Assembly: GCA_040876735.1 (NCBI GenBank)
Contig: JBBDPC010000100.1
Coordinates: forward strand, 3,818 to 67,817
From: Phycisphaeraceae bacterium
GTDB lineage: Bacteria > Planctomycetota > Phycisphaerae > Phycisphaerales > Phycisphaeraceae
Direction of reading: 5' to 3'
Length of the DNA: 64,000 bases
Part shown: positions 324-62,867 of the stretch, one piece after another
How the letters are laid out: every line of letters begins with the position of its first letter
Position numbering within the stretch: position 1 is the stretch's first letter
Position numbers and translations under genes: made by a program
The notes under the pieces: generated by a model
What the model was told of the DNA's origin: nothing
The model's input: only the letters and a program-made list of their open reading frames with translations
Database searches by the model: none

Positions 324-541
324 GGGGTTCGGGATTCGGGATTCGGGGTTCGGGAAAAAACGCCCGAGCCTGAGGAGCGCAGCGACGAAGGGCGGGATGA
401 GGGGGAATGTGTGATGTGTGATGTGTGATCGATGATGTCAGGGAGCGCCAGGCGGTCCCGGTGAACGATCGATTACAGATCATCGATCACAGATTGATCG
501 ATCACCCTGATCCGGGGCTTCGCGGACTCAGCCCTCGGCTT
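324..541 (+). repeat. composite dispersed repeat, copy 1
   Basis: Modules in order: (GGGRTTC)n heptamers, palindrome CGCCCGAGCCTGAGGAGCGCAGCGACGAAGGGCGGG, (GTGTGAT)3, then CCGGGGCTTCGCGGACTCAGCCCTCGGCTT. Near-identical to the reverse complement of 28861-29051. Confidence 0.9.
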
Positions 542-608
542 GGGGGGGGTGTTGTCGAGGTTGCCGGTGCGGGCGCTTTGAGGGTTGGTTGCGGATAGGA
601 TTGGGGCT

Positions 609-2861
609 ATGACGGATGTGGATGGGCATGGTGAGACATCGTCGACGCGGGGGCGCGTGCTGGCGGAGGCGGTGCGGGCGTATGAGGCGGCTGCGCCGGG
701 GGGGGCGGGGGTTGACGATCGCGCGGCGGAGGCGGCGGGCCGGGCTGTCGGGGGCGACTTTGAGCGGCGGCTGGTGGCGCGGGCGGCGGCGTTGCCGGCG
801 GCGGGGAAGTTGTCGCAGGCGCTGGATCGGGTGACGCGGGCGGGCAAGTGGGCGGTGGTGGTGGGCGTGGTGTTGATGGCGGTGGCCGGCGCGGGAGCGG
901 CGCGGGGGGCGATGGCGGTGAGTGTGGACGGGGGAGCTTCCGGGGGCGGAGGGATATCCGGGGGCGGCGGGCAGACGGTCAATGTGTTCTGGGCGTTGGG
1001 GGCGTTGCTGGGGGTGCAGACGTTGTTGCTGTTGGGGTGGCTGGTGGCGATGGTCGGTTGGCCGGGCGGCGCGGGGCAGGGGTCGTTGGGGGCGGCGGTG
1101 CTGGGGGCGGGTCGTTGGCTGGCGTCGCGGGTGGATCGCAGTGCGGAGCAGTTGGCGGCGATGGAGGCGGTGACGGGCACGCTGATGCGCAGCGGCGCGG
1201 GGCGGTGGGTGTTCGGCCTGGTGAGTCATGCGCTGTGGGCGGGGTTCAACGTGGGTTGCCTGGTGATGCTGCTGGTGCTGTTGAGCGTGCGGCATTACAC
1301 GTTTGCATGGGAGACGACGATTCTGTCGCCGGAGGCGTACGTGCAGCTGACGCAATGGCTGGCGGCGCTGCCGGGGGTGTTGGGGCTGCCGGCGCCGACG
1401 GTGGAACAGGTGGTGGCGACACAGGCGGTGGCGGAGGCGGAGGCGTTGAACGAAGCGCGGTGGGCGTGGGCGGGCTTGCTGGCGGGGTCGCTGGTCTGTT
1501 ACGGGCTGGCGCCACGGGCGCTGCTGGCGGTGGGTTGTGCACTGGCGGCGTGGCGGGCGCAGCGGCGATGGCGATTGGACGTGACGCTGCCGGGGTATGG
1601 TCGGCTGCGTGAGCGGTTGATGCCGACGACGCGGGCGCTGGGCGTGGTGGAGGGTGCGGATGTTGAAGGAGAGACGGAGGAGGCGCTGAGCCAGGAGCGG
1701 CGGGGCGAAGGGAGGCCGGTGGGGCCGGCGGCGATTGTGGCGGTGGAGGTGCGGTCGCATGAGGGGGTGTGGCCGCCGGTGGTGGATGACGTGCAGTGGC
1801 GGGACCTGGGGTTTGTGGATGATCGCGAAGGTCGGCGGCGGGTGATCGAGGCGTTGGAAGCGAGCGAGGTGGAGCCGGCCGTGCTGGTGGTGGTCTGCGA
1901 GCTGGCGGCGACGCCGGACCGGGGCACGGAGCGTTACCTCGGCGAGTTGCGGCGGACGGTGACGCGGTCGCCCCTGCTGCTGCTCACCGGCGGGCAGGCG
2001 CTGCGCGAGCGCGGCGACACGGAAGCGATCGGCCGACGCTTGTCGCAGTGGCGCACGCTGGCGGAGCGGGTGGGCATCGACGGCGATGCCGTGCTCGACC
2101 TCGACCTCGACCACGCCACCGATGCGAGCCTGCGCCAACTGGCCCAGCGACTGCCGCGCGACCAAGACACGACCACGCCCCCCGCTGCCGGCCACACCCG
2201 CCACCTCGAAGCCGCCTTCGACCGCATCGTCACGCATGCCCGACAGTGGCAAGGCCCGCCCGATCCGCCGGCGCGGTCGAAGCTGCATCGCGAGATCGCC
2301 GCGCTCTATCGCAGCGACGGCGGCGGTGATGCCAAAGCGCTGACGAAGCTGCTCGATGTGCCGACCGACTTCCGGGGCGACTGGCAGAGCAAGGTGCGCA
2401 ACAGCGCCAGCCGGGTGGTCGACATGCTGCCACCGAGCCTGCGCCTACGGCCGCGCTGGCTGGCGGCGGGCGCGGCGTCGGGCGCATTGGGCTGCGTGGC
2501 CGCCGCGACGCTGCTGTCGCCGCTGGCCATCGCCGCACTGCCGACGTGGACGGCCATTGGCGCCGCCATCGCCGCCGCGGCGCAGCCGCGCGGCGGGCAT
2601 ACGGTTTCCGACGTGCCGCAAGACGCGGACGAGGCATTGCACAGCGACGACTATACGGAAGCCGTGGACGCCGCCGCGCTGTTCGCCATGCTGCTTCAGT
2701 TGCAGGGGCTAGGCGAAGCGACCATCTCGCGCGTGCTCGACCGCGTGCTTACCGACGTGGACGATACCCGCCGACTTACCGACGCCGACGCGGTGCGCCG
2801 CTGGTTGGATGAGTTGCGTCATCGCTTCGACGTTGCCTTCGCTGAGGAGGTGCGGGCATGA
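609..2861 (+). CDS. DUF2868-domain membrane protein
   Basis: Motifs VNVFWALGALLG, RHYTFAWETTIL, YGLAPR and PDRG; several TM helices; ATGA overlap with the downstream GTPase. Confidence 0.8.
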   Translation: MTDVDGHGETSSTRGRVLAEAVRAYEAAAPGGAGVDDRAAEAAGRAVGGDFERRLVARAAALPAAGKLSQALDRVTRAGKWAVVVGVVLMAVAGAGAARGAMAVSVDGGASGGGGISGGGGQTVNVFWALGALLGVQTLLLLGWLVAMVGWPGGAGQGSLGAAVLGAGRWLASRVDRSAEQLAAMEAVTGTLMRSGAGRWVFGLVSHALWAGFNVGCLVMLLVLLSVRHYTFAWETTILSPEAYVQLTQWLAALPGVLGLPAPTVEQVVATQAVAEAEALNEARWAWAGLLAGSLVCYGLAPRALLAVGCALAAWRAQRRWRLDVTLPGYGRLRERLMPTTRALGVVEGADVEGETEEALSQERRGEGRPVGPAAIVAVEVRSHEGVWPPVVDDVQWRDLGFVDDREGRRRVIEALEASEVEPAVLVVVCELAATPDRGTERYLGELRRTVTRSPLLLLTGGQALRERGDTEAIGRRLSQWRTLAERVGIDGDAVLDLDLDHATDASLRQLAQRLPRDQDTTTPPAAGHTRHLEAAFDRIVTHARQWQGPPDPPARSKLHREIAALYRSDGGGDAKALTKLLDVPTDFRGDWQSKVRNSASRVVDMLPPSLRLRPRWLAAGAASGALGCVAAATLLSPLAIAALPTWTAIGAAIAAAAQPRGGHTVSDVPQDADEALHSDDYTEAVDAAALFAMLLQLQGLGEATISRVLDRVLTDVDDTRRLTDADAVRRWLDELRHRFDVAFAEEVRA

Positions 2862-4288
2862 ATGCTGCCGCTCGCACCGCTGCATCCGCCGAGCCGCTGC
2901 GCGTCGCCGTCGTCGGCCACACCAACACGGGCAAGACATCGCTGCTGCGCACGCTCACGCGCGACCGCGCCTTCGGCGAAGTCTCCGACCGCCCCGCCAC
3001 CACGCGCGACGTCCGCGGCGCCGCCCTGCTCGTCCAGGGCCAGCCCGTGGCCGAGCTGTACGACACGCCGGGCCTGGAAGATTCCATCAGCCTGCTCGAA
3101 CACCTCGAACAGTTCCGCGACGACCATCGCACCACCGGCCACGACCTCGTCGCCCGCTTCCTCGAACACGACGACGCCCGCCGCCGCTTCCCGCAAGAAG
3201 CCAAGGCGATCCGGCAGGTGATGGCGGCGCAAGTGGCGCTCTACGTCATCGACGCGCGCGAGCCGGTGCTGGGCAAGTATCGCGATGAGCTGGCCATCCT
3301 CGCCTGGTGTGCCCGGCCGGTCGTGCCGGTGCTCAACTTCGTCGCCGACACGGCCCACGCCCGCACCGCCGAGTGGCGCGAGCAGCTGGCCAAGCTCAAC
3401 CTCCATGCCGTCGCCGAGTTCGACACGGTCGTGCTCGACGAATCGGGCGAGCAACGGCTGTTCGAGAAGATGCGCACCTTGCTCGACAGCCATCGCGCCA
3501 CGCTCGACGCGCTGATCGCCGACCGCCAACGGCTGCGCGACGAGTTGACGCGCAGCGCGGCGATGATCGTGGCCGACCTGCTGATCGACGCCGCCGCCTG
3601 CGTCGTCCGCGCCCCCGCCGACGAGCCGGGCAAGGTTGACGCCGCCATGGAACAGCTCAAGCAGCGCGTCCGGCAGCGCGAGCAACGGGCGGTGGAGCAG
3701 TTGCTCGACCTCTTCCGCTTCGGGCAGGAAGACTACCTCGGCCACGACCTGCCGCTGGAGAACGGCGAGTGGGGTTGGGACCTGTTCAACCCCGAGACCA
3801 TGAAACGCTTCGGCGTCCGCACCGGCGGCGGCGCGGCGGCGGGTGCGGCGGCGGGGCTCGCCATCGACGCCATCAGCGGCGGCCTCACGCTCGGCCTGCC
3901 CACCGCGGTCGGCGCAGCGCTCGGCGGCCTGCTCGGCTCCGGGTCGGCCGAGGGGCGACGCCTCTTCGACCGCCTGCGCGGCTACAGCGAACTGCGCTGC
4001 AACAACGCCACGCTCCAGTTGCTCACCGTCCGCCAGCTCGCCCTCGTCCGCGCCCTGCTCCAGCGCGGCCACGCGAGCCCCGCGCCGCTGCGCCTCGACG
4101 CCGACCAGGCCCCCGTCACCGCCCGCCGCCTGCCCGAACCGCTCCAGCGTGCCCGCGCCCAACCCGCTTGGTCACACCTCAACAGCCCGGCCGCCACGGC
4201 CTTCGCCGGCCCGCCGCGCCGCCGCGACGCCGCCGTCGCCGACCTCGCCGACCAGTTGCACCACACCCTCCGCCGACCCGAGGCATAA
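2858..4288 (+). CDS. P-loop GTPase with DUF3482 C-terminal domain
   Basis: G1 GHTNTGKTS, G3 DTPG, EPVLGKYRDEL motif, Gly-rich hydrophobic hairpin near the C-terminus. Confidence 0.85.
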   Translation: MNAAARTAASAEPLRVAVVGHTNTGKTSLLRTLTRDRAFGEVSDRPATTRDVRGAALLVQGQPVAELYDTPGLEDSISLLEHLEQFRDDHRTTGHDLVARFLEHDDARRRFPQEAKAIRQVMAAQVALYVIDAREPVLGKYRDELAILAWCARPVVPVLNFVADTAHARTAEWREQLAKLNLHAVAEFDTVVLDESGEQRLFEKMRTLLDSHRATLDALIADRQRLRDELTRSAAMIVADLLIDAAACVVRAPADEPGKVDAAMEQLKQRVRQREQRAVEQLLDLFRFGQEDYLGHDLPLENGEWGWDLFNPETMKRFGVRTGGGAAAGAAAGLAIDAISGGLTLGLPTAVGAALGGLLGSGSAEGRRLFDRLRGYSELRCNNATLQLLTVRQLALVRALLQRGHASPAPLRLDADQAPVTARRLPEPLQRARAQPAWSHLNSPAATAFAGPPRRRDAAVADLADQLHHTLRRPEA

Positions 4289-4303: not shown

Positions 4304-4433
4304 TCCGGCTCCCCTCCCTTTGGGAGGGGCTGGGGGAGGGGGCCACCGGCCGCTATGACGCTACGTCCGCGCCGATGACGTAAGGCACTCGCAGACAACG
4401 CTTCCCCAACGCCTCCCGAGGGGGGGAGCCGGA
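4304..4433. repeat. REP-like inverted pair (CCCCTCCCCCAGCCCCTCCC...GGGAGGGGAG family)
   Basis: 4304-4342 is nearly the reverse complement of 62835-62867; a degenerate inverted partner lies at 4401-4433. Confidence 0.7.
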
Positions 4434-4457: not shown

Positions 4458-4546
4458 GTAGTGGTTCATTCCGGTCTTTTGGTGGGGCAGGCGTCCCGCC
4501 TGTCGGCGGGCGAGACGTCCGCCCCACTTGGAAAGCGAACCACTAC
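4458..4546. repeat. REPIN-like element, GGTGGGGCRGGCGTCYCGCC family, with outer GTAGTGGTTC/GAACCACTAC ends
   Basis: Inverted arms GGTGGGGCAGGCGTCCCGCC and GGCGGGCGAGACGTCCGCCCCAC; related copies near 27694, 44182 and 47527. Confidence 0.8.
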
Positions 4547-4563
4547 CCGCCCCCGGAATTTCA

Positions 4564-4591
4564 TTGACACCCCCCTGCCCTCGACTACGAT
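4564..4591 (+). promoter_or_regulatory. sigma70-like promoter
   Basis: TTGACA-N16-TACGAT about 110 nt upstream of the DUF1559 gene. Confidence 0.5.
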
Positions 4592-4704
4592 GGCTTTTAC
4601 GAGTGTTCGACCCTTTCTCGCCCTGTCGTCAGGACCACCCGGTCGAGCCATTGGACAGCCAGACGCACAGCCCACAAACTGTGCTCTCCAGGGGAACCGC
4701 CGCC

Positions 4705-5652
4705 ATGCGCACCGCGCCACATCATCACCCGTCCGCCGGCCCACCACGCGACGCCGCCTTCACCCTCATCGAGCTGCTGGTGGTCATGGCCATCATCGCC
4801 CTGCTCGTCGCCCTCGCCATGCCCGCGCTCTCGGCCGCGCGACGCAGTGCCGAACGCCTTCGCTGCGCCTCCAACCTCCGGCAGGTCACCCTCGCGGGGC
4901 TGACCTTCCTCGGCGACTACAACCATCGCGTCCAGCCCGCCTCCGCGCACGCCTGGGCCGTCGCACAGGACTCCAGCCAGCGCCGCTGGCGCTACGACCG
5001 CGACGACGGTCAACTTCTGGACTGGGCCAGCGCCCTGCTGCCCTACCTCGGCGAAACCAGCAGCGACCACTTCCGCAACGCCTCCGACCGCGCCTGGCCC
5101 ATCTTCCAGTGCCCCAGCGACCCGGCCATGAGCGAAGCCGACCCCGGCGCCCGGCTCCTCCACGGCTTCGGCAACGCCCGCAGCCCCGTCTCCTTCGGCA
5201 TCAACTACGACATCGCCGGCCTGGTCAACAACGCCAGCCCGCTCACCCCCCACCTCGGCGGCTTCGACGCCAGTGGCTCCATCAGCCTCTACGGCGGCAC
5301 CCATGGCAGCCCGAACGGCCCGCTCAACACCGAACTCGAACAGGTCCACCAGCCCGCCAGCACCATGCTCTACGCCGAGTGCGGCACACGCCAGGGCCCC
5401 ACCGCTCGCCCCGGCTCGCCGCTGGGCTGGCAGTCCGACGCCCTCTACTACAGCACCCACACCCACAGCTTCACCGGCCCCGGCCACGCCGGCGGCGGCA
5501 CGCTCGCTCACGTCCGCAGCCACACGGCCGGCGACCGCATCCCCCTCGACCGCCACGCCGGGGCGATCAACATCGCCTACGTCGACGGCCACGTGGGGCT
5601 GGTGTCGCGCAACGCTTTCGACCGCGTCCGCGTCTCCCCTTACGCCGATTGA
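4705..5652 (+). CDS. prepilin-type N-terminal cleavage / DUF1559 (H-X9-DG) protein
   Basis: [30 protein letters not shown] and C-terminal [14 protein letters not shown]. Confidence 0.9.
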
Positions 5653-5669
5653 GCCCGCGCCGCCCCCGC

Positions 5670-5698
5670 TTGCCCCCGCCCGGCGACTGGCTTATACT
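5670..5698 (+). promoter_or_regulatory. sigma70-like promoter of the tRNA
   Basis: TTGCCC-N17-TATACT ending 20 nt before the tRNA. Confidence 0.6.
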
Positions 5699-5718
5699 TC
5701 TGCCCGCCAACACCAGAT

Positions 5719-5791
<73 letters not shown>

Positions 5792-5801
5792 CTTTCAGAT
5801 C

Positions 5802-5832
5802 AAGCCCGCCTTTTCACAAGGCGGGCTTTTTT
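5802..5832 (+). terminator. Rho-independent terminator after the tRNA
   Basis: AAGCCCGCCTT/AAGGCGGGCTT hairpin followed by a T-tract. Confidence 0.85.
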
Positions 5833-6152
5833 GTGACGCATTTCAGCTATCAGATCACGAAATATCGCTATTGCCTCCCTCCATGGCGAAGGGTACGCTT
5901 GCAGACGCGAACCGGCGTGGCGTTCCAGACTTCGTCCGAGAACCCTTCTGCAGGTGGCACAGGCCTCTCGTCTGTGCATGTGAGGTTGAAAGCTCCACAG
6001 GCCAGACGCCTGGACCACCCGATTTCGGAGGCCGCCGGGTTCTCGTACGAAGCTTGGAGCCCGACGTTGATCAACCATCTGTCGCAAATCACGGGGACGA
6101 CGCACAACCTGACCGTGCCACCGCAGCACGTGGGAACAGGACCGGGTTCGCC

Positions 6153-9100
6153 ATGACCTCCCAACTATTTTTGTTCCTCTCTTTCGTGGGTCGCAGACCG
6201 CATGTGATGGCGTGGTGTCTGCTCACCCTGCTGCTCGGGCTCACGGCCGGCAATGGGACAAGCACCGCCTGGAGCGATTCGACCGGTGAGGCGTTGTTGA
6301 CCGGCGTCAGTTACGTCGAGCCCGCCGACCTGGAGGCGGAGATCGACTGGCAGGCGACGTGGCGCGAGACGCACGTGGCGACCATGACCGCGTGGCAGGC
6401 GGAACTGGCTGACGTGGAGGACGCGGAACGTCGCCGACAGCGCGAGCGGGCCCGGGAGGTGCGGCTGCTGCACGAACTGGCCCGACGGTTTCCCGATGCC
6501 GCGCAGCAAGACAATGCCGCCATGCACCAGGCGCTGCTGCTTGAACGTCTCGCGCCACACATGGACCGTGGCCTGCGGCTGCTGGCGGATCGGCTGGAGA
6601 CGGCGGAAGACGACCCGCAACGGGCGGTGGAACTGCTGACCGCGATGCACGAGCGCGCCGGCGGGCTCCTCAATGCCGGGGACTGGCCGGCGTTTGTCGC
6701 CCGACATCTGCTGGCGCTGCACGAGGCGGGGCAGGCGGTGGACGACGCGCTACGCCGCGAGGCCTTGCAGCGATGGTTCGTGCAACTGCGTGGGCAGCGT
6801 CGGTTCTTTGAAGCGCGGGACGTGCTGCGAGCGATTGACCAGCTTGAGGCGAACGACGGGACCGCCTGGCGGGCGGCGCGTTTGCTGGCGTGGGTCGACT
6901 TTTACATGGCGGCCGGGCTTCACGATCAGGCGGCGGCACGGGCCGAGCAGGTGGCGGCGGTCGTTGCCGAGGCAGGCGACGGCGAAGCGGATGGCGAGCT
7001 GGAAGCCTTGCGCCTTGCCGCCGAGCAGCGGCTGGAGACGATCCGGGATCGCGTGCCCAACGCCATGCCACCGTCGTTGACGATGGCGCGGGACGTTGCG
7101 CCGGAGTTGGATCGCCTGCGCACCGCATCGGAAATCGACGAGTCGGCGATCGATCGCCTATACGCGGACCCACAGATCATCGGCACGCTCGTCGAGCGGG
7201 GGCCGCGCCATTTTGCGTCGACCTGGACGGAACTGACCGGCGAACTCGCCAACCAGCCAGCCGCATCGCTCGCGCCGCTGCGCCTGCACCAGCAGCGGCA
7301 GGCGGAAGCGGAAGCGCGAGGCCGTGCCCCGGCGCGGCCGGCCGAGGTGGGGTTGATGGCCCACTACCGCCGTTCGCCCTGGTCCGAGGCGGGGCAGCGT
7401 GCGTTGCTGGAGGCGGCCGAGCGCTGGCTGCGCCGGGGTGAACTGGACCTCGCCCGCCGGTCGTTGAGTGACTTGCTGGCGCAGACGGTGGAGGGCCCGC
7501 TTGCCGAGCGGGTGCGGGCGGGCGTGGAACGGCTTGCGTCGCCGGTGGAACCGACCGCCGCCGCGCCGGCGTCGCATCCGGCCGGCCCCGCGCCGGCGGC
7601 GGCCTGGCGGTTGCCCGACGCCAGCCATGCAATGCCCGGCCACTTCGACCATGCGCCGCCGGGGGATGCAGTCCACCTGCTTCGCGGGCAGGGCCTGGTC
7701 GGGCATGAACGTTTCGCGCTGGTGGCGGGGCCGACCCTGCTGGCACGTCATGATGGCTCGAACGACGAGCCCACCTGGGTGCGCCGGCACGCGGACGCAA
7801 CGGCCGGCCCCCGCGCGGCGGCGACCAGCGAAGTGATCACCTTGCCCGGCCCGTTCCAGCCGGCGGTCGCGGGCGAGGTGATCGTCACGCGCTGGGGGCT
7901 TGCGGCGGACGAACGGGGCGCGGCCGACGTGGCAGCGTTCGATGCAGCCGACGGCGAGCCGATCTGGACGACCGCGCAGCACGCCCGCTGGCAGACGCTG
8001 CAACCTGTGAGCGATCCGGTCGTCGCCGGGCAGCGCGTGTATGTGCTGGCGCGCGAGCGGCAGACCGCCGCGTTCACACCGACGGTGCGCGTCGTGGTCG
8101 TCGCGCTCGACCTGGTGCGTGGCGACACCTTGTGGGTTCGTCCGCTGGCGACGCAGGCGACGACGATTCGCCTCGGCTCGCTGGACGTCGACACGATCCA
8201 CTCCGGCAACCGTGTCACCGTGGACGACGCGGCCGTCTACGTCACGACCGGCGCGGGGGTGAACGCACGGCTCGACGCGCGCGATGGTCTGGTGGAATGG
8301 CTCCAGTGGTACCCGCGCGCCCCCCGCCGTGAGCAGTGGCTTGAATTCGCGCAGCGGGCCGGTGCTGCGCCGCAGGTGTTCGAGGACGTGATCGTCCTGA
8401 CCCCGCGCGATCGATCAGGCGCCCTGGCGGTCGACCGCAAGACCGGCGAAACGCGCTGGGACGAGCCGCTGCTGCCTGTAAACGGCGTGGCCGGGCGGTG
8501 GGAGCGAGCGGTGGTGTTCTACGGCCAGCAGGCGCTGACCAGCGTGGACGCCGGCACGGGCGAGGTGAACTGGCATCGTCGATTGGACCAGCCGCTTACG
8601 GTCGCGCCGGTGAGCCTGGGCCGGCGGTGTCACGTCGTGGCCGGCACGCGGTGGCTGGAACTGGACATGGCCAGCGGCGAGGTGACGGCGCAACGTGACG
8701 AGGCGTCGCACGCGGAGTTGCTGACGCTGGCGATAAACGAGCGGGGCGTGGTGGCCGTGACCGCCGCGCCGGCGCGACGGCCGTTGCAGCATGAAGCCGC
8801 GCAGGCGGTCGAACGCGACGACGCCTCCGCCATGGGGAATCCCTTTTTCCACCGTGCACAGTTTCGCCGGCGTCCGCATGCCACGCTCTGGCATCTGCCG
8901 GACGCGTCAGCGCCGCCCAGCGACTTTCTGCTCTACGGCGGCGGCTGGCTGGAGCGGGTGAGCCGTCCGCCGCACCCGCAGGCGCGCTGGAGCCGGCCCG
9001 TGCCCGTGGGGCTGATGCACCAGCATTGGCATGACGGCATGGTGGTGCTGGTCTCTGCCGACCGCGCGTTGGCCGTGGACCTCGCGGATGGCGCGTTGCG

Positions 9101-10088
9101 CTGGCAGACGCCCTTGCCCTTCCAGCCGGACGCGTCACACCAGGCCGGCGGCCACCTGGTCATCGGCCGGCACACCGACCAGTTCGGCTACACCATCGAC
9201 CAGGCCGCGGGCATCGATCTCACCACCGGCCGACTGATGTGGGAACGCCCCCTCTACCTCCGCTGGGCGCCGACCATCACCTGGGACGGCGAGCGGGCCT
9301 ACGCGATCACGCGCGGCGTCAATCACCCGCAGGCGGAACTGCTCGAACTCGACCTGGACACCGGCGCCGTGCGGGAACGCGTGGCCTATCAGCACGCCCC
9401 GGAACAGATGCCCGAAGCGGAGTACACCATCCATACGGCCGATGGCGTGATCGCGCTCGCGGCCGACAAGCAAGTGTACGAGGTGCGGCCGGGCGATCCG
9501 TCCACGGTGATCCACTATCCCCGCCTGCCGGAGGCGTTTGAATTCGGCGCGTCCCGCTTCTCGACGGAATTCCACCTGCACGACGAGCGGTGGATCGAGG
9601 TGCGCCGCTACCACGGCCCGCCCCACTTTCACCGCAACTTCCACCAGTGGCTGTTCGATCGGCACGATCCGCAAGTGATGATCCATCGCACGAGCGACGG
9701 CCGACTGAGCGGCGATCTCCTGCTCGAGCCCAGCCCCGAGGAAGCGCGGCTGTCGGTGTTCCACCTGACCGACCAACGCGAGCTGGTCACGGTCGATCTG
9801 CCTCGGCGCGATCAGTACCGGCCGGTGCATGTCGTGGATGCGTGGCACGAAGCCGACCGCCTCTACACGCTCACCACGTCCGCGCGCGAGTTGGAAGATG
9901 CCGTGATCTACCTGGACGCGTACGACCTGGCTACAGCTGAACATCTCGGCGGCCAGACGCTGACGGGCGTGATGTCGCGCCAGCTCTCGGCCGGGCCGGG
10001 GCAGACGCAACTGCTGCGCGTCGCCGACGGCTTCGTGCTCGCCGACGCTTACGGCGTCCACATCTTCTCGCCCTGGCAAGCCCCTTGA
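6153..10088 (+). CDS. large secreted protein with helical/TPR-like N-terminal half and PQQ-binding-like beta-propeller repeats
   Basis: Hydrophobic N-terminal signal; repeated AxDxxxGxxxW motifs (AFDAADGEPIW, ALDLVRGDTLW, AVDRKTGETRW, AVDLADGALRW). Start could alternatively be 6207. Confidence 0.8.
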   Translation: MTSQLFLFLSFVGRRPHVMAWCLLTLLLGLTAGNGTSTAWSDSTGEALLTGVSYVEPADLEAEIDWQATWRETHVATMTAWQAELADVEDAERRRQRERAREVRLLHELARRFPDAAQQDNAAMHQALLLERLAPHMDRGLRLLADRLETAEDDPQRAVELLTAMHERAGGLLNAGDWPAFVARHLLALHEAGQAVDDALRREALQRWFVQLRGQRRFFEARDVLRAIDQLEANDGTAWRAARLLAWVDFYMAAGLHDQAAARAEQVAAVVAEAGDGEADGELEALRLAAEQRLETIRDRVPNAMPPSLTMARDVAPELDRLRTASEIDESAIDRLYADPQIIGTLVERGPRHFASTWTELTGELANQPAASLAPLRLHQQRQAEAEARGRAPARPAEVGLMAHYRRSPWSEAGQRALLEAAERWLRRGELDLARRSLSDLLAQTVEGPLAERVRAGVERLASPVEPTAAAPASHPAGPAPAAAWRLPDASHAMPGHFDHAPPGDAVHLLRGQGLVGHERFALVAGPTLLARHDGSNDEPTWVRRHADATAGPRAAATSEVITLPGPFQPAVAGEVIVTRWGLAADERGAADVAAFDAADGEPIWTTAQHARWQTLQPVSDPVVAGQRVYVLARERQTAAFTPTVRVVVVALDLVRGDTLWVRPLATQATTIRLGSLDVDTIHSGNRVTVDDAAVYVTTGAGVNARLDARDGLVEWLQWYPRAPRREQWLEFAQRAGAAPQVFEDVIVLTPRDRSGALAVDRKTGETRWDEPLLPVNGVAGRWERAVVFYGQQALTSVDAGTGEVNWHRRLDQPLTVAPVSLGRRCHVVAGTRWLELDMASGEVTAQRDEASHAELLTLAINERGVVAVTAAPARRPLQHEAAQAVERDDASAMGNPFFHRAQFRRRPHATLWHLPDASAPPSDFLLYGGGWLERVSRPPHPQARWSRPVPVGLMHQHWHDGMVVLVSADRALAVDLADGALRWQTPLPFQPDASHQAGGHLVIGRHTDQFGYTIDQAAGIDLTTGRLMWERPLYLRWAPTITWDGERAYAITRGVNHPQAELLELDLDTGAVRERVAYQHAPEQMPEAEYTIHTADGVIALAADKQVYEVRPGDPSTVIHYPRLPEAFEFGASRFSTEFHLHDERWIEVRRYHGPPHFHRNFHQWLFDRHDPQVMIHRTSDGRLSGDLLLEPSPEEARLSVFHLTDQRELVTVDLPRRDQYRPVHVVDAWHEADRLYTLTTSARELEDAVIYLDAYDLATAEHLGGQTLTGVMSRQLSAGPGQTQLLRVADGFVLADAYGVHIFSPWQAP

Positions 10089-27676: not shown

Positions 27677-27810
27677 GGTAGTGGTGTACTTTGCTTTCCT
27701 GGTGGGGCGGGCGTCTCGCCCGTCGTTCGGTCGAAGACCGAATACGCTGTTGGCCCTTCGGGCCAATGGCGGGCGAGACGCCCGCCCCACCAGGAAAGTA
27801 TCCCACTACC
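27677..27810. repeat. REPIN-like element (GGTGGGGCGGGCGTCTCGCCCG family) with two internal hairpins
   Basis: CTTTCCTGGTGGGGCGGGCGTCTCGCCCG pairs with CGGGCGAGACGCCCGCCCCACCAGGAAAG; outer ends GGTAGTGG/CCACTACC. Confidence 0.9.
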
Positions 27811-28822: not shown

Positions 28823-29051
28823 CGGGGTTCGGGGTTCGGGGTTCGGGGTGATTTTATTCAGAAGCCGAGGGCTGAGTCCGCGAAGCCCCGGATGAGGGGG
28901 ATCGATGACCTATAGAATCGCCTGGCGCTCTCTGACATCATCGATCACACATCACACATCACACATCATCCATTCCCCTCATCCCGCCCTTCGTCGCTGC
29001 GCTCCTCAGGAGCGGGCGTTATAAAATCTTCCCGAATCCCGAATCCCGAAT
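28823..29051 (-). repeat. composite dispersed repeat, copy 2 (inverted relative to 324-541)
   Basis: Bounded by (GGGGTTC)3 plus GATTTTAT on the left and ATAAAATC plus (CCCGAAT)3 on the right; contains (ATCACAC)3 and both palindromic modules. Confidence 0.9.
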
Positions 29052-31117: not shown

Positions 31118-31379
31118 CTGACATTTCTCCCCAAGCCATGTAAAAGCGTGATCGAAAGACGAGCCTTGCCACGCGGCGTCCCCGCTCGTCAGGCAAGAAA
31201 TCGTCCGTGCATCAAGCCCGCATCAGCACGGAGCATCACTTTGGCGGGTTTTTTCGGTTTGGGCCCCCGTTCAGGTCGACACAGGCCGCACAAACGGCAA
31301 GGTTTGACAGGCTCGGCGGGGGGAAAAGGAGATTGCAGACGGGGGAGTGGGGAGTTATCGGATTGCGCGCGTCAGACGT

Positions 31380-31403
31380 CCACGGATTGAATCCGCGGGC
31401 TTC
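31380..31403. repeat. palindromic repeat, CCACGGATTGAATCCGYGGGCTTC family
   Basis: Matches copies at 41045, 56674 and a degenerate copy at 63383. Confidence 0.8.
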
Positions 31404-31440
31404 GGAGAATGGCACAAGTCAAGTATTGGCGCGTCCCGTA

Positions 31441-35997: not shown

Positions 35998-36032
35998 CCC
36001 GAACCCCGACTCCCGAACCCCCAATCCCGAAC
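35998..36032 (+). repeat. heptamer array (CCCGAAC-like) directly upstream of ispG
   Basis: CCCGAAC CCCGACT CCCGAAC CCCCAAT CCCGAAC. Confidence 0.7.
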
Positions 36033-37629: not shown

Positions 37630-37776
37630 TGTGTAGCGCCGCCGCGGAACCAGTGGTCGGTGTTTCTGGATTCGGCGTCGGCCATCGTGCGGGCGGTGCG
37701 CTACGTTGAACAGAATCCGGCGAAGGCGGGCCTCAAGCCGCAGCGATGGTCGTTCGTCACGCCGTACACGCCATGA
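37630..37776 (+). pseudogene. C-terminal remnant of a RAYT / IS200-like Y1 transposase
   Basis: WSVFLDSASAIVRAVRYVEQNPAKAGLKPQRWSFV has the YxxxNPxxAG catalytic-Tyr motif; no HUH motif or N-terminus upstream. Confidence 0.7.
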
Positions 37777-41060: not shown

Positions 41061-41073
41061 ATCCGTGGGCTTC
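41045..41073. repeat. palindromic repeat overlapping the fapA stop codon
   Basis: GAAACCCACCGATTGAATCCGTGGGCTTC; the TGA at 41058-41060 lies inside it. Confidence 0.8.
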
Positions 41074-42455: not shown

Positions 42456-42562
42456 CGTTAGCCGCGGCCTTTACGGCCGCGCATTCGGTCGACCGGACGC
42501 GATCGGATGCAACCGGGGCCGACCCGTAACGGAACGCGCGGCCGTAAAGGCCGCGGCTAACG
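42456..42562. repeat. REPIN-like element with perfect 27-bp inverted arms
   Basis: CGTTAGCCGCGGCCTTTACGGCCGCGC and GCGCGGCCGTAAAGGCCGCGGCTAACG; each arm is itself palindromic. Confidence 0.9.
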
Positions 42563-47375: not shown

Positions 47376-47380
47376 CGACT

Positions 47381-47481
47381 ATGGAGCCGTGAGCCGTTCG
47401 CCTTCAGCCATTAGCCAGCGACAAGCCGAACGGAAGGGACATGCTGGCTGAAAGCTGAAAGCGAACGGCTCAAAGCTCCAT
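47381..47481. repeat. hairpin built from inverted 7-nt periodic arrays
   Basis: ATGGAGC..GAGCCGTTCGC..TTCAGC..TAGCCAGC pairs with GCTGGCTG..GCTGAA..GCGAACGGCTC..GCTCCAT. Confidence 0.8.
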
Positions 47482-47513
47482 AACACCACACGGCCGACAA
47501 ACCCGCCGTGCGA

Positions 47514-47572
47514 TACTTTGCTTTTCGTGGGGCAGGCGCCTCGCCTGCCGGCGGTGTCCCGCCCGCCCCACC
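47514..47572. repeat. REP pair, GTGGGGCAGGCG family
   Basis: Shares the TACTTTGCTTT..GTGGGGC prefix with the copy at 27687. Confidence 0.75.
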
Positions 47573-50078: not shown

Positions 50079-50206
50079 GATGCGATGCTCCTGAATCAGG
50101 TGTGTGGGCAAGCGTGCCCGGGCTTGAACGGGGTCATGGTACCGGCGAACCGGATGCGGCGTCGATCCGAACGCAAGCCGTCGCCCGACAGCCCGGCCAC
50201 ACGAGC

Positions 50207-51547
50207 CTAGCGCGGGGCAAGATCGACCGGCTCGGCCGTCGCCCCCTCGGCCGGCGCGATGCCGAGCAGCCTGGCGACGGTCGGGTGCAGTTGCAACGCC
50301 TCGATGCGCTTGATCTCCCGGCCGCCCAACGGCTCGGGCCAGCGATGGATCAGGGCGAAGCCGAGCATGTCCGGCTCGTCGGCCGGATCGTAGCCGTGCA
50401 TGCCGCGCGGGCCGCCGCGTTCGCCGATGGGCGCGGTCACGCCCTCGGGTCGGACGGAGAAGGTGTGGCCGGTGGTGAGCACTGCCACGAGATCGCCAGT
50501 GCGGGTGGGATGGTCGTACTGCCATTGCTCGGGCAGGTCGTCGCGCCGCCAGATGCGGATGAAGTCGTGCTTGTCGGCGGCGGCGAGGGCGGTGGCGATG
50601 ATCGCTTCGCGTTCGTCGTCGGCTTCGACCCGGTCGAGGTGGATGTGGCCGACGTTGCCGGTGGTGACGAGGGTGATGTCATCGCGATCGCGTGGCAGGC
50701 CGACGAGTGGGTAGAGGTTGACGAGCGTGTGGACGACGGCCATGCCGTGGTCGGTGGTGAGCAGCAGGTAGAGCGTGTCGCCGTCGCGGGCGGTGCGTTG
50801 CCATTGGGCATGGATGGCCTCGGCGAACCAGCCGAGCAACACGTCGGTCTGCTCGAAGGTTTCGACGACTTCGGGCGCGTCGGGGCCGGCTTCATGGCCG
50901 ACCTTGTCCACGTCGCCGATCCAGGTCATCAGCAGTTGCAGCGGTTGCTCGTGCGTGTCGTTTTGCCAGACGTCGATGAGCTGTTCGAGGCGTTCGCGGT
51001 CGCTGAGTTGGGCGTCGAAGCGTTGGTTGTGATGGGCGGTCTGGATGTGGTGGTGCTCCTGCCAGTGGGCCAGGGGCCAGTCGCCCACGGCCGTGCGGAT
51101 CTGCTGGCGGGTGGCGGTGAACCAGATCGGCTCGGCCTGGAGGAGGTTGGCGAAAGGCGGGTAGTGGTAGGTGCGTTGGCGTCGGCGGTCGTAGAAGGCA
51201 TTGGCGGGGACGCCGTGGTCGCGGGGGAGGACGCCGGTGGCCTGGGAGGCGTGGCTGGCGAAGGTGACGGAGGGGAAGGTGGGGACGAGGGCGCGGGTGT
51301 GGAGGCCGGTGGCGATGAGGCGGTCGAGTGCGGGCGTGTTGGCGCGGTGGACGTAGTCGTGGCGGACGCCGTCGATGGTGATCCAGACGACGGTGGTGCG
51401 GTTGGGGGTTTCGGCATCGGCCTCGGCCAAGGCGGGCGTCGCCTGCACGGCCAGCCCCAACAGGAGCACGCACACCAGCCACGGCCTGCGCAGGAGGTCG
51501 TGGTAGGAGTTGAAGGGGCGGGCGTGGTGCGGGCGGGTGGTGGGCAT
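50207..51547 (-). CDS. alkaline phosphatase superfamily, nucleotide pyrophosphatase/phosphodiesterase
   Basis: ITIDG, FPSVTFASH, DKVGH, TDHGM and GMHGYD motifs; signal peptide. Confidence 0.9.
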   Translation of the reverse strand: MPTTRPHHARPFNSYHDLLRRPWLVCVLLLGLAVQATPALAEADAETPNRTTVVWITIDGVRHDYVHRANTPALDRLIATGLHTRALVPTFPSVTFASHASQATGVLPRDHGVPANAFYDRRRQRTYHYPPFANLLQAEPIWFTATRQQIRTAVGDWPLAHWQEHHHIQTAHHNQRFDAQLSDRERLEQLIDVWQNDTHEQPLQLLMTWIGDVDKVGHEAGPDAPEVVETFEQTDVLLGWFAEAIHAQWQRTARDGDTLYLLLTTDHGMAVVHTLVNLYPLVGLPRDRDDITLVTTGNVGHIHLDRVEADDEREAIIATALAAADKHDFIRIWRRDDLPEQWQYDHPTRTGDLVAVLTTGHTFSVRPEGVTAPIGERGGPRGMHGYDPADEPDMLGFALIHRWPEPLGGREIKRIEALQLHPTVARLLGIAPAEGATAEPVDLAPR

Positions 51548-51674
51548 GGTCCTGCATTGTTGCCGGCTACGGCGGTCGGTACAACCGGGGGCCGCGCTCC
51601 GCTGCGATGCGCGGCTAAGGTTTGGGGACGCCCGACTCGCCCGCGCCCGCCCGGCGGGTTACATTGATCCGACG

Positions 51675-54518
51675 ATGAGCGATGCGGCCACGCACAACTC
51701 GAAGCCCGCCAAGGCCCTGACCCCGGCCATGCAGCAGTACCAGCGGTTCAAGAAGCAGCACCCGCATTGCGTGCTCTTTTTCCGCATGGGCGACTTCTAC
51801 GAAATGTTCTACGACGACGCGAAGCTGGCCCACAAGGTGCTCGGCGTCACGCTCACCCAGCGCACCGAAGGCGTGCCCATGGCCGGCGTGCCCTACCACG
51901 CGGTGGAGAACTACCTGCGGCGGATGATCCAGGCGGGCCATCGCGTGGCCGTCTGCGAACAGGTCGAAGAGGCGGCGCAGGCCAAGGGCGTCGTGAAGCG
52001 CGACGTCACCCGCGTCGTCACGCCCGGCACGATCACCGACGAGTCGCTGCTGGAAGAGGGGCAGGAAAATCCGCTCGCGGCAGTCGTCTTCCAGGGGCAA
52101 GGGGCCAAGGGGCCGAGGGGCCAAGCGGCCGAAGGGAAAGAAATCGCCTCCATCGCCTGGGCGGAGCTGAGCACCGGCGCCTTCCACGTCGCCACGCTCG
52201 CTGCCGACGAGGTGGCTGATGAGCTGGCGCGCGTGCGGCCGCGCGAGTTGATCTACTGCGAGACTGCCGACGGCGAAGCGCCCACCCGCGTCCGCCAACT
52301 CGCCGAGGCCCTGGGCTGCTCGCTCACCCCCCGGCCCGGCTGGCAGATGCGCCAGGGCGAGGCCGTGGAAGCCCTCCGCCGACAGTATGGCGTCGCCCAG
52401 CTCGCCGGCTTCGGCTTTGATGATGACGACCCCGCCCTCGCCCCTGCCGGCGGCATCCTGCACTACCTCACGGAAACGCAGTGCGTCGGCGCCGACGATC
52501 CCCACGCGAAAGCCGAAACGCGAAACGCGAAACTCTCCCACCTCCAGCCGCCGCGCCGGTTCGTGCGCAACAGTCACCTGGTCATCGACCAGACGTCGCT
52601 GCGCTCGCTGGAAGTCGAACGCACGCTGCGCAGCGGCGGCACGGAGGGCTCGCTGGTTGCCACCCTGCAGGCCGGCGGCGGCTGCGTCACCGCCATGGGC
52701 AAGCGGATGCTCCGCCACTGGCTCTGCTATCCGCTCTGCGAGCGCGAGCCGATCGAGGGTCGGCAGCGCGTCGTGCAGGCGCTGGTCAACGACGTCCGCT
52801 TTCTTGATGAGCTGCGCGCCGCGCTGGACGGCGTGCAGGACGTGCAGCGCATCACCGCCCGCCTCGCGGTCAACCGCGCCACGCCGCGCGATCTCGTCGC
52901 GCTCGGCCGCAGCGCCGCGCAAGTCCGCCAACTCGAGCGTATGCTCGCCGACCGCCCCACCGTCGCGCATTACCATGAGCCGGTCGCCGCGCTGGTCGCC
53001 CCGCTCGAATCGCTCGCCCGCCAGATCGCCGAGGCCTGCGTCGACGAGCCGCCCGCCCACCTGCGCGACGGCGGCCTGGTCCGCGACGGCTACGACGCCC
53101 AGCTCGACGAATACCGCAACCTTCAGCGCGACAGCCACGACTGGCTGGCCCGCTATCAGAAACAGCTCATCGACACGACCGACCTGCCCGCCCTCAAGGT
53201 CGGCTTCAACAAGGTGTTCGGCTACTACATCGAGCTCACCCGCGCCAACCGCGACAAGGCCCCCGACGACTGGACGCGCAAGCAGACGCTCAAAAATGCC
53301 GAGCGGTTCATCACGCCGGAGCTCAAGGAGTATGAGCAGAAGGTGCTCAGCGCCGAAAGCCGGGGCGTCGCGCGCGAGCAGGCACTGTTCGCCGAGTTGT
53401 GCACGCTCGCTCAACAGCAGACCGCCGGCCTGCACCGCTTCGCCGAGTTGGTCGCCGAGCTGGACGTGCTCGGCTGCTTCGCCCGCCGGGCGGTGCGCCA
53501 TCGCTACGTCAAACCCACCATCGTCGACGACCCCGTACTCCACGTCGACGGCGGCCGACACCCCGTGCTCGATGAACTGCTGGGCGAACAGTTCGTGCCT
53601 AACGATGTGGCGCTCGGGTCTCGGGGCTCGGGGATCGGGTTTCGGGAGGGAGAAGCGAACGCCGAGCCGGATCGCGAACCGCAAGCCACGAAACCCGATA
53701 CCCGAGACCCGAGCCCCGCCGCCACCCTCGCGCTGATCACCGGCCCGAACATGGCGGGCAAGTCCACCTACATCCGGCAGGCCGCACTGATCACCCTCCT
53801 CGCGCACACCGGCAGCTTCGTCCCCGCCGACCGCGCGACCGTCGGCCTCTGCGACCGCATCTTCACCCGCATCGGCGCGTCCGACGAACTGCACGCCGGC
53901 CAGTCCACCTTCATGGTCGAGATGACCGAGACCGCCAACATCTGCCACCATGCCACCGCCCGCAGCCTCGTCATCCTCGACGAGATCGGCCGGGGCACGT
54001 CCACGCTCGACGGCCTCTCGCTCGCCTGGGCCCTGGCGGAACACCTGGCCCACCTCGGCCCGCGATGCCTGTTCGCCACGCATTACCACGAACTGACCGC
54101 CCTGGCCGACGAGTACGACAACGTCGCCAACCTCAACGTCACCGTCCGCGAATGGCAGGACCAGATCGTCTTCCTCCACCGCATCGCGCCCGGCAAGACC
54201 GACCGCAGCTACGGCATCCACGTCGCCAAGATCGCCGGCCTGCCCCAGCCCGTCGTCGACCGCGCCAACCAGTTGCTCGGCCAGCTTGCCGTCAGCCACG
54301 CCCCCGCCCCCGGAACCGCCCCCGGAACAACCCCCGCTCCCGCCCCTTCACATAGCCGGGCGAAGCGCGACCAGTTGCCGCTGTTCACAGAGTACGTCGA
54401 TCACCCCGTCCTCACCGAGCTGCGCCAGGCGGACCTCACCCAGCTCACGCCCATGCAGGCGTTCGACCTGCTCCGCCAACTGCACGAACAGGTGAACCAC
54501 GATCCGCCCGGCGCCTGA
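51675..54518 (+). CDS. mutS: DNA mismatch repair protein MutS
   Basis: TPAMQQY, FRMGDFYEMF, ITGPNMAGKST, STFMVEM, DEIGRGT, FATHY and SYGIHVA motifs. Confidence 0.98.
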   Translation: MSDAATHNSKPAKALTPAMQQYQRFKKQHPHCVLFFRMGDFYEMFYDDAKLAHKVLGVTLTQRTEGVPMAGVPYHAVENYLRRMIQAGHRVAVCEQVEEAAQAKGVVKRDVTRVVTPGTITDESLLEEGQENPLAAVVFQGQGAKGPRGQAAEGKEIASIAWAELSTGAFHVATLAADEVADELARVRPRELIYCETADGEAPTRVRQLAEALGCSLTPRPGWQMRQGEAVEALRRQYGVAQLAGFGFDDDDPALAPAGGILHYLTETQCVGADDPHAKAETRNAKLSHLQPPRRFVRNSHLVIDQTSLRSLEVERTLRSGGTEGSLVATLQAGGGCVTAMGKRMLRHWLCYPLCEREPIEGRQRVVQALVNDVRFLDELRAALDGVQDVQRITARLAVNRATPRDLVALGRSAAQVRQLERMLADRPTVAHYHEPVAALVAPLESLARQIAEACVDEPPAHLRDGGLVRDGYDAQLDEYRNLQRDSHDWLARYQKQLIDTTDLPALKVGFNKVFGYYIELTRANRDKAPDDWTRKQTLKNAERFITPELKEYEQKVLSAESRGVAREQALFAELCTLAQQQTAGLHRFAELVAELDVLGCFARRAVRHRYVKPTIVDDPVLHVDGGRHPVLDELLGEQFVPNDVALGSRGSGIGFREGEANAEPDREPQATKPDTRDPSPAATLALITGPNMAGKSTYIRQAALITLLAHTGSFVPADRATVGLCDRIFTRIGASDELHAGQSTFMVEMTETANICHHATARSLVILDEIGRGTSTLDGLSLAWALAEHLAHLGPRCLFATHYHELTALADEYDNVANLNVTVREWQDQIVFLHRIAPGKTDRSYGIHVAKIAGLPQPVVDRANQLLGQLAVSHAPAPGTAPGTTPAPAPSHSRAKRDQLPLFTEYVDHPVLTELRQADLTQLTPMQAFDLLRQLHEQVNHDPPGA
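53612..53714. repeat. inverted heptamer arrays inserted in frame in mutS
   Basis: GCTCGGGTCTCGGGGCTCGGGGATCGGGTTTCG and CGAAACCCGATACCCGAGACCCGAGC. Confidence 0.85.
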
Positions 54519-54666: not shown

Positions 54667-54886
54667 ATGGAAGCAGAGATCGCCCCCGGCAACCCCCGGA
54701 AGCCCTCCGGTACCCCCGGGCAACAGACCGGGCCGATCGGAGACGTCGGTTATAAAAAGATGGAAACCGGGTCTGCTGCGGCCCTATGATTCGACGGCAA
54801 CGCACGACAGACCCGCCACAAAACTCCTTGTTTGCCCCCCTCACGGCCCGCTCGGTGTCCCCCCCACACCGACGGGCCGGTTTTTT
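54667..54886 (+). ncRNA. candidate small RNA (or a 40-aa ORF) with its own terminator
   Basis: AT-rich upstream region with TAAGAT at 54658; GCAACAGACC/GGTCTGCTGC stem; strong terminator at 54844-54886; no long ORF. Confidence 0.3.
54844..54886 (+). terminator. Rho-independent terminator
   Basis: CGGCCCG(C)TCGGTGT/ACACCGACGGGCCG hairpin followed by TTTTTT. Confidence 0.8.
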
Positions 54887-54934
54887 GCGCGCACCGCACC
54901 GCCTCTTCACGGCGATGGCGAGATGCCGGAAAGT

Positions 54935-55179
54935 CACAAAGGACACGAAGGCACAAAGAGCACGAAGAAGAAGCGGACAACCGCGAAGCGGCGAAGGGTG
55001 CGAAGTGTAGAAGAAGTGGAAGGATGGGAGGAGAGCGGGTGGCGGGATTTTCGCGACACAGCGTTGAAATCGCTTCACATCCGTCCGCACAACTCAACTT
55101 CATCGCCGCGATCTTCGCCTCCGTCGCACCTTCGCGGTTTCTGGATCCCTTTGTGTCCTTCGTGGTTCTCCCGTGGTTC
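54935..55179. repeat. nested inverted 8-9-nt periodic arrays (A-B...B'-A')
   Basis: CACAAAGGACACGAAGG.. pairs with CCTTTGTGTCCTTCGTGG; AACCGCGAAG.. pairs with ..CTTCGCGGTT. Confidence 0.75.
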
Positions 55180-55231
55180 TCCCAGGTCTTGCCATGCAGC
55201 CGAGGGCGAAACGGTCTAAAATGGCTCGTCT

Positions 55232-56674: not shown

Positions 56675-56702
56675 AAGCCCACGGATTGAATCCGTGTGCT
56701 TC
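56674..56702. repeat. palindromic repeat abutting the mqnC stop
   Basis: GAAGCCCACGGATTGAATCCGTGTGCTTC. Confidence 0.8.
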
Positions 56703-61645: not shown

Positions 61646-61725
61646 GGCTGGATCTTCCTTCCTCGCCCACACGGCAGGTCTGGAAGGGAGGATAGGCGGG
61701 TGCAGATCGACGGCGGAAGGTGATT

Positions 61726-61854
61726 TCCGTCCGAGCCGGCTTCTGTGAAGCCGGGTGCGGGCGCAGCCCGCAGTCGCGAGCGTCACGTTTCGCTGTGCGC
61801 CGCAAATCGACGCCTGCGGCCTCGCCCGGCTTCACAGAAGCCGGCTCGGACGGA
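61726..61854. repeat. REPIN-like element with perfect 30-bp inverted arms
   Basis: TCCGTCCGAGCCGGCTTCTGTGAAGCCGGG and CCCGGCTTCACAGAAGCCGGCTCGGACGGA. Confidence 0.9.
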
Positions 61855-61892
61855 CAGGCCGTGATGCGGTTTGTCCACCCGAAGACCCGTCT

Positions 61893-62303: not shown

Positions 62304-62492
62304 GGTTGGGACTCCTGGCTGGCGGTGCGTTGCAAACATCATGGTGACGCCTCTCAGTTTATCCGCGCTGGCAAGCCGATTGCACACCTTTTCCGACAGG
62401 TTCGACGCGCCGCGCCGTGACGGCACCGGCCGCCCCGCGACGCTCGCCCGCACAACCTGCCAACCCGCCTCAGACGCAGGGGAGAATAGACG

Positions 62493-62687
62493 ATGAACGG
62501 CAATCCCACCGGCGGCGGCCTGACGACCGTGCTTTACGCCGTACTCGCGTTCGGCCTGATCCCAACCTCCATGGTGCTCGAAGTGCTCGCACCCGTGCTC
62601 GGCCACGGCCTGATCGCCCAGGCCTGCTACTGGACCAGCGGCATCGTCGCGCTGGGCGGCCTGGCCAAACGATGCTTCCTGCCCTGA
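62493..62687 (+). CDS. small hypothetical membrane protein
   Basis: 64 aa with two hydrophobic segments; GGGGAG RBS. Confidence 0.5.
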   Translation: MNGNPTGGGLTTVLYAVLAFGLIPTSMVLEVLAPVLGHGLIAQACYWTSGIVALGGLAKRCFLP

Positions 62688-62834
62688 TCGCGCGGCACCG
62701 CCTGCCGCAAGTCCGCCACGCCCTGTGCAGAGCTTACAACGCGGCGCGGGCAGGATATTCCATGTCATACTCAAATCACCAGCCGACCTGACGCCTGGGC
62801 GAGAAGAGTTTCGCGCGCCAGGGTGGCCGGTGAT

Positions 62835-62867
62835 CCCCTCCCCCAGCCCCTCCCGGGGGGAGGGGAG
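62835..62867. repeat. REP-like palindrome CCCCTCCCCCAGCCCCTCCC..GGGAGGGGAG
   Basis: Matches the reverse complement of 4309-4341. Confidence 0.75.

Follow-up and report, generated by a model that had tools for sequence, protein, structure and literature searches.

RESULTS

Repeat families in the window and across the genome

The stretch of DNA analyzed here (the window; 64,000 nucleotides) covers positions 3818 to 67817 of contig C100 in the assembly of a Phycisphaeraceae bacterium (183 contigs, 4.15 Mb, 66.5% G+C, 88.9% complete) and carries palindromic repeats of several families together with tandem arrays of short units, located between genes, at gene ends, and in frame within genes such as topA and mutS. 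A preliminary description of the window had listed at least six palindrome families plus short-period arrays and ascribed them to a single mobile hairpin system. Families A to F are named in the order of that list, families G to J were added from a k-mer census, and the genic and intergenic counts are based on our own gene calls (3,318 genes). The repeats are real: all six families and the arrays were present at the expected places in the window and proved to be multicopy genome-wide, with 39, 5, 27, 50, 6, and 79 copies of the exact motifs A, B, C, D, E, and F, respectively. Subfamilies defined with 1 to 3 mismatches had 6 to 118 copies each, compared to 0 to 2 in an order-5 Markov genome matched in length. 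Arrays of period 7 numbered 475, versus 2 of period 5 and 19 each of periods 10 and 11. As originally described, neighboring copies were mostly inverted (A, 37/45 pairs; B, 55/74; C, 10/10; E, 33/33; F, 62/77; G, 31/38; H, 14/14). An inverted family-C pair is present in the window at 61726 to 61854. The two E copies of the window do not form one pair; they are lone hairpins 58 kb apart (4309 to 4361, minus strand; 62815 to 62867, plus strand).

Most repeat units were intergenic (1,344 of 1,606, or 84%, versus 13% at random), including 104/118 units of family A and 189/212 of family B. A stop codon was overlapped by 86 of the 1,606 units, versus 1.5% at random, and 95 units were located well inside 66 genes (random expectation, 59%); once arrays consisting of G+C only were dropped, 82 units in 56 genes remained, among which a few chance matches persist. 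Occupied intergenic regions contained a single family in 710 of 869 cases, and repeats were present in 140/364 convergent and 120/451 divergent gaps.

Families A and B are associated with RAYT genes

Within the window, gene-less inverted pairs of family A were present at 4476 to 4539, resembling doublets of repetitive extragenic palindromic sequences (REPs) that form hairpins (REPINs), and at 27694 to 27798, where the pair formed a long hairpin (z of −13.8 as DNA). A family-B pair at 42456 to 42562 separated a DUF1501 gene from a DUF1800 gene. Four Y1 genes were found in the genome, and two of them were surrounded by family arms, so that, as had been anticipated, intact genes for REP-associated tyrosine transposases (RAYTs) are flanked by the repeats, in this case by two of the families. 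The intact RAYT gene on contig C20 was bracketed by B arms. Its product scored 52.8 bits on NF047646, below the cutoff of 80, and exceeded the cutoff of PF01797, with the HUH and YxxNP motifs present. Inverted arms, defined throughout by a local score of at least 30, were found around 27 of the 30 best loci of its clade, most of them with a B foot. The Y1 remnant noticed earlier at 37630 to 37776 (plus strand) indeed encodes the last 41 residues of a RAYT belonging to the family-B clade, 54% identical to the C20 protein; it is without arms, and no family match was found within 400 nt of it.

The second RAYT gene, complete and with family-A arms, was located in frame within the only valyl-tRNA synthetase (ValRS) gene, valS, that we found (C126, positions 1166 to 1703). 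The embedded protein scored 100.2 bits on NF047646 (cutoff, 80). In its clade, inverted arms were detected at 29 of the 30 best loci; the strict A motif occurred on both flanks at only 4 of the 30, and 20 of these 30 best relatives (the C126 RAYT included) were located in ValRS. Among 13 further Y1 matches picked for long open frames, 11 were again in ValRS, 1 with A arms and 10 of class 3 type with other arms; the ValRS insertion site is thus shared, within the order, by two distinct Y1 clades. A literature search, with subscription journals mostly outside reach, yielded no published account of a RAYT inside ValRS. With a Y1 gene, bracketing by the same arms, and gene-less extragenic doublets, families A and B fit the RAYT/REPIN scheme.

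Relatives of the ValRS-type RAYT were also seen in frame in other long genes (L421, L423, L428, L429, L432, and L436), for which the flanking residues suggest a Ham1-type pyrophosphatase and leucyl-tRNA synthetase. A further RAYT group (L001 on C32 and L060 to L071) had a long C-terminal tail and short arms of its own, which in several loci were tandem arrays of 9 to 13 nt.

Three further arm types bracket genes unrelated to RAYT

Heptamer, 8- to 10-nt, and E arms bracketed genes of PF05635 (four-helix-bundle proteins), PF13366 (GxxExxY), and PF04480 (DUF559), respectively, and not Y1 HUH genes. All eight four-helix-bundle genes of this genome were located between protein genes and had arrays of 6 to 8 nt on both sides by eye; inverted arms reached the threshold in six of the eight, versus 6 of 389 control small genes of the same genome. 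In five relatives, 13 of 20 four-helix-bundle genes had inverted arms, and 7 was the best period in 28/40 flanks. Of 64 inverted heptamer pairs, 56 had the G+T-rich arm first, an order also seen at most armed genes. Some armed genes were found at an operon junction shared by different genera (L006 and L447; L009 and L443). In the window, a single heptamer-type arm was found directly 5′ of the gcpE start (35998 to 36032, plus strand).

The sole GxxExxY gene of this genome had arms of 8 to 9 nt, and 26/30 GxxExxY loci in relatives had inverted arms. Inverted 8- to 11-nt arrays of this gene-bracketing type, here gene-less, were present at 54930 to 55183, where one sequencing run lacked an 8-nt unit at 54983. 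DUF559 loci in relatives had inverted arms in 21 of 22 cases and the E motif on both sides in 19, after prior removal of 8 weak DUF559 matches, none of which had an E pair. No DUF559, GIY-YIG, IS200, class 1.2, or class 3 gene was found in our 88.9%-complete assembly. The same literature search did not retrieve published armed cassettes of the four-helix-bundle, GxxExxY, or DUF559 type.

DUF559 domains with E arms were additionally seen inside open frames of 1,033 codons (L182, G002) and 618 codons (L191, G076), possibly as in-frame inserts. On C82 (L325, positions 2411 to 3031), E arms and then nested 9-nt arms surrounded an unrelated open reading frame (ORF) of 97 codons and lower G+C content, possibly a composite carrying cargo.

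Heptamer units and four-helix-bundle genes

Heptamer-filled loops of MutS were compared with the arms of four-helix-bundle genes. All seven such loops, from four genomes, matched an arm of their own genome (scores of 33 to 64), the own-genome arm being best or tied in five, and the other 11 MutS loops scored at most 21. Three units were then counted in five genomes, with matches overlapping within arrays. The L443 unit had 58 matches in sister genome G001 and 38 in G010, both with intact genes, 3 in our genome, where the gene has a stop codon, and none in G016 or G017. The L447 unit had 36 matches, all in G017, with 22 for the reversed control of this nearly symmetric pattern, and the L448 unit had 49 in G001 and 0 to 5 elsewhere. 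Hence, each unit was abundant only in genomes with an intact gene carrying that arm. Nearest four-helix-bundle proteins also tended to share arm units (Spearman 0.30, nonindependent pairs). These results are suggestive, although not proof, of heptamer unit and gene traveling together.

Family F forms three-layer composites

The left end of the described region (324 to 541) consists of an outer heptamer array (324 to 355), an F3 arm (370 to 390), an inner heptamer hairpin starting at 407, and an F1 arm on the minus strand (512 to 539). A complete composite at 28823 to 29051 showed the order outer heptamers, F1, inner heptamers, F3, and outer heptamers. Genome-wide, 56 of 61 F pairs enclosed an inner heptamer hairpin, 46 had an outer array, and 42 had both. 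For non-F families, the corresponding numbers were 6 (inner) and 11 (outer) of 175 pairs, with a background of 100/1,358; frequent nesting, claimed for the repeats in general, thus holds for F and not for the other families. Three types of arm occurred in combination with three types of inner hairpin, and spacers separating F1 from the outer array recurred up to seven times. The recurring spacers and arm/inner combinations suggest that the composite was copied as one unit.

The long F2/F3 motif had 66 matches in this genome and none in 100 genomes of the family; short F2/F3 cores with two mismatches allowed had 7 and 3 matches in the 1.6 Mb of sister-genome sequence read. Searches that may omit this genome's own records gave no locus for the exact F1 motif in GTDB genomes and none for the long F2/F3 motif in JGI metagenomes. 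All 25 GTDB loci with the F1b hairpin were from Planctomycetota, mostly Phycisphaerae, and the hairpin was also seen within long reading frames of other planctomycete genomes (L107, L121, L122, L125, and L127). With standard energy parameters, single F hairpins showed no folding advantage over shuffled sequences (z of −1.1 to +1.1) and may use putative tandem G·A pairs recognized by inspection. F1 orientation was not biased relative to transcription (7 versus 9).

No bracketed partner Y1 gene was found for C, D, F, or G in this assembly or in the gene loci fetched, and none was apparent for family C in 23 metagenome loci or for F1b in 25 loci. GIY-YIG genes had inverted arms at 6/30 loci, and several of the eight examined closely had an F-like hairpin upstream; this association with F is a lead only, as is a Y1 gene of G068 (L058) with F-like arms. 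A GIY-YIG subclade (L462 to L489) was located directly 3′ of tRNA-like or transfer-messenger RNA-like ends, with an F-like hairpin upstream. As candidate identities for family D, IS200/IS605 ends and PATEs were considered; IS200 ends in relatives were similar in layout to family D, and no IS200 TnpA was found in the assembly, TnpB being outside the search.

In-frame copies and comparison with the sister genome

The in-frame blocks of topA and mutS are as originally reported. In topA, an F1b hairpin (22398 to 22426, plus strand) fills a loop that is short in most of 29 TopA sequences; the sister genome G001 has no REP there, and G008 has a different one in the same loop. The mutS gene, also on the plus strand, contains an 8-nt array in loop 1 (52093 to 52136), a heptamer array in loop 2 (52504 to 52533), and, in loop 3 5′ of the Walker A loop, an inverted heptamer pair (53612 to 53718) that matches the arms flanking the C26 four-helix-bundle gene (L006). 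All three loops varied in length over the 30 MutS sequences compared, and many sequences had short ones; G001 had other heptamers in all three, and other arrays were present in G009, G010, and G017. Compared with solved MutS structures, loop 3 breaks the chain directly before Walker A. A contig of a second run from the same study (X2) spans 50134 to 53741 with two differences, so the mutS inserts are not an assembly artifact. Structure prediction from the single MutS sequence was useless (predicted local distance difference test score [pLDDT], 36); with 14 sequences (pLDDT, 65), the three inserts were placed in low-confidence coil like other parts of the model, which is weak evidence.

Peptide loops are also added to other housekeeping proteins, in line with the initial proposal. 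The host-gene scan covered 48 of the 66 genes, chosen for clear repeats, and 35 were named at E of 1e-45; the host classes are given as plain counts, with no claim of enrichment. Eleven hosts function in replication or repair (dnaE, dnaA, dnaX, dnaG, priA, recG, uvrB, mutL, an AddA/RecB-like helicase gene, rarA, and ligA) and eight in tRNA or rRNA metabolism (thrS, lysS, pheS, gluQ, tgt, queG, miaA, and rsmA); murE, murF, nadE, gcvP, dapF, and others were further hosts. At one locus (L289, C6:11121-14509), murF contained five and murE two in-frame heptamer arrays.

Of the 4.6-Mb sister genome, 1.6 Mb was read; it is too diverged between genes for exact empty sites to be defined. Loops with A and E copies were empty there (astB, dapF, and the AddA/RecB-like helicase gene), those of uvrB, recG, and queG were filled with other units, and no copies of A, C, E, F1, G, or H were present in the part read. 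At window junctions, the site of the B pair was empty. A family-G pair missed previously (47380 to 47482), followed by an A pair (47521 to 47570), had a B-type pair as its counterpart. Family-D palindromes differed in their centers: the one at 41047 to 41071, which as reported supplies the fapA stop codon (41058 to 41060), and the one directly 3′ of the stop of a CofH/MqnC-type gene (56676 to 56700) had D variants with another center, and the gap containing the third (31374 to 31405) held a different palindrome. The predicted presence/absence differences between sister genomes were thus borne out, sites being empty or differently filled.

Other features of the window

A hammerhead or other known RNA was rejected as the identity of the repeats, Rfam giving a single tRNA in the window. 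This tRNA gene (5719 to 5791) is located within a 1,875-codon frame listed at 4461 to 10088, whose real start therefore is likely further downstream (6204 in our gene call). A 78-nt intergenic segment (54820 to 54897) was 96% identical to an unlinked site in G001 and had no Rfam match at the gathering score. The window also contains a DUF1559 gene, which, like the loci sharing the F1b hairpin, points to the Phycisphaerae.

DISCUSSION

Each arm type is paired with its own kind of small gene: families A and B with two RAYT clades, E with DUF559, the 8- to 10-nt arms with GxxExxY, and heptamers with four-helix-bundle genes. We consider it probable that the repeats derive from a number of independent cassettes, each a small gene between two arms, and represent copies that lack the gene; the small protein of each cassette would have aided its spread. 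At least four such cassettes with mutually unrelated genes, rather than one transposase system, are likely involved. By analogy with Escherichia coli TnpA-REP in vitro (PMC8266576), RAYTs would act on the A and B hairpins in single-stranded form, cutting and transferring them. DUF559 and GxxExxY, both PD-(D/E)XK-type proteins, might nick at their own arms, which host repair would then copy. The four-helix-bundle protein, with no known catalytic activity, could bind its own unit and recruit host enzymes, while slippage would set heptamer copy number. In this lineage, family F has likely taken up heptamer hairpins and been amplified together with them as a single unit; the enzyme for F would have been lost or would lie in unassembled sequence. 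Copies would persist where the host tolerates them, i.e., at gene ends, at operon junctions, and in frame in variable protein loops.

Several points weigh against this scenario. To our knowledge, no nuclease activity is known for the four-helix-bundle family, and we infer the activity of DUF559 and GxxExxY from their fold families. Mobility by the partner proteins is likewise an inference. Arms were absent around 7 of the 20 four-helix-bundle genes in relatives; families C, D, E, F, G, and H have no resident partner gene in the incomplete assembly, and several abundant units occur here without a resident armed gene. Two MutS loops of this genome scored slightly higher with the arm of another genome (38 versus 33 and 46 versus 44). 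The comparison of units and genes comprised five related genomes, with units chosen after the arms had been seen, and the match between gene and arm may stem from joint inheritance or joint conversion. Finally, no empty allele was present among the listed joints in four metagenome runs of one study.

An unlikely, although serious, alternative is that arrays and hairpins arise by themselves through slippage and gene conversion, with the small genes as passengers in ready-made hairpins, conversion homogenizing arms and units, and RNase III possibly cutting the hairpins out of RNA, in the manner of rRNA intervening sequences (IVSs), whose excision by this enzyme is shown for Coxiella (PMC4990558). 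It would account for the units without a resident gene, common here, for the armed genes at junctions shared across genera, which would be old residents, for the unrelated 97-codon ORF inside nested arms on C82, and for the 8-nt unit polymorphic in one run. Random capture, however, does not predict that arm types are sorted by gene family; the tendency of nearest four-helix-bundle proteins to share units also speaks against this alternative, and slippage alone leaves the excess of period-7 over period-5 arrays unexplained. The single RAYT-driven system of the preliminary description, moving all modules and joining REP hairpins to microsatellite arms, is in our view improbable. Four Y1 genes, two with family arms, the regular joining of F pairs with heptamers, and the finding that one family may take another's place at a given junction in the sister genome agree with it, but none of the displayed RAYT loci had heptamer, E, or F inverted arms, other genes being bracketed by heptamer, 8- to 10-nt, and E arms instead; co-occurrence was rare outside F plus heptamer, as the prevalence of single-family regions also indicates, and TnpA-REP enzymes recognize their cognate REPs (PMC8266576). 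Retention of the repeats as regulatory hairpins of the host (termination or mRNA stability), with spread being secondary, is very improbable: although the intergenic bias, the overlap with stop codons, and the higher occupancy of convergent than divergent gaps would fit, junctions of the sister genome hold another family or unit or are empty, copies occur inside coding loops, and whole families are missing from the sequence read there.

It is conceivable, though still doubtful, that the four-helix-bundle proteins (23S-IVP/Avd-like) are unit-specific writers of heptamers, each version causing its 7-nt unit to spread into gene junctions and tolerant protein loops of the genome, and form, together with the DUF559, GxxExxY, and RAYT cassettes, a converged guild of REPIN-like elements able to merge into composites. 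Gain or loss of one four-helix-bundle gene would then rewrite loops of core proteins such as MutS, UvrB, and RecG. RAYT transposases are the usual explanation for REP-like repeats, whereas in this genome and its relatives each arm type pairs with a different small gene, and single heptamer units pair with single four-helix-bundle genes. These pairings make three uncharacterized gene families accessible to direct tests of a protein with its own unit, and they offer a route by which variable loops of core enzymes may change from one close relative to the next.

REPs and REPINs with in-frame copies are the ordinary, already known part of the system, and ORF-bearing IVSs have also been published. 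Families A and B are like REP/REPIN-RAYT systems, REPtrons, and TIRtrons in their inverted hairpin pairs, intergenic bias, and Y1 HUH gene with the same arms (PMC3733652, PMC6006769, PMC8266576), and cleavage and strand transfer of REPs by the enzyme have been shown for other REPtrons (PMC8266576). Stop codons supplied by REPs are already described, as are REPs inserted in frame into genes for repair and tRNA functions and the same bias toward these genes (PMC3733652). For the non-RAYT cassettes and the in-frame RAYT, no precedent was found in the literature searched. Unlike in REP/REPIN-RAYT systems, three further arm types bracket non-HUH genes here, one RAYT is a domain inside ValRS, and F builds three-layer units together with heptamer arrays. 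TnpA-Y1 class 3 proteins are mainly from Planctomycetes and have atypical hairpins with a CnGA foot (PMC6006769); class 3 motifs were present in the ValRS inserts of 10 relatives, and C and F1 start with a CnGA-type foot, which is a resemblance only. No class 3 gene was found in our assembly, and host-gene fusion is not among the features given in the available text of that source.

The four-helix-bundle proteins belong to the same family as S23p of 23S rRNA IVSs (PF05635, TIGR02436; PMC4990558) and are likewise encoded within a hairpin-forming inverted repeat. Unlike IVSs, the eight copies of this genome are located between protein genes in operons and not in the 23S rRNA gene, their arms are tandem heptamers, and gene-less copies occur genome-wide. 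Cyanobacterial short tandemly repeated repetitive (STRR) sequences are heptamer arrays between and inside genes, the likeness to our arrays being by description only; no partner gene for them was found in the literature searched. Rickettsia palindromic elements and other in-frame repeats likewise contribute repeat-derived peptides to conserved proteins (PMC3184786, PMC3733652). Unlike the Rickettsia elements, many of the copies described here are short-period arrays, and the unit occupying a given loop differs between sister genomes.

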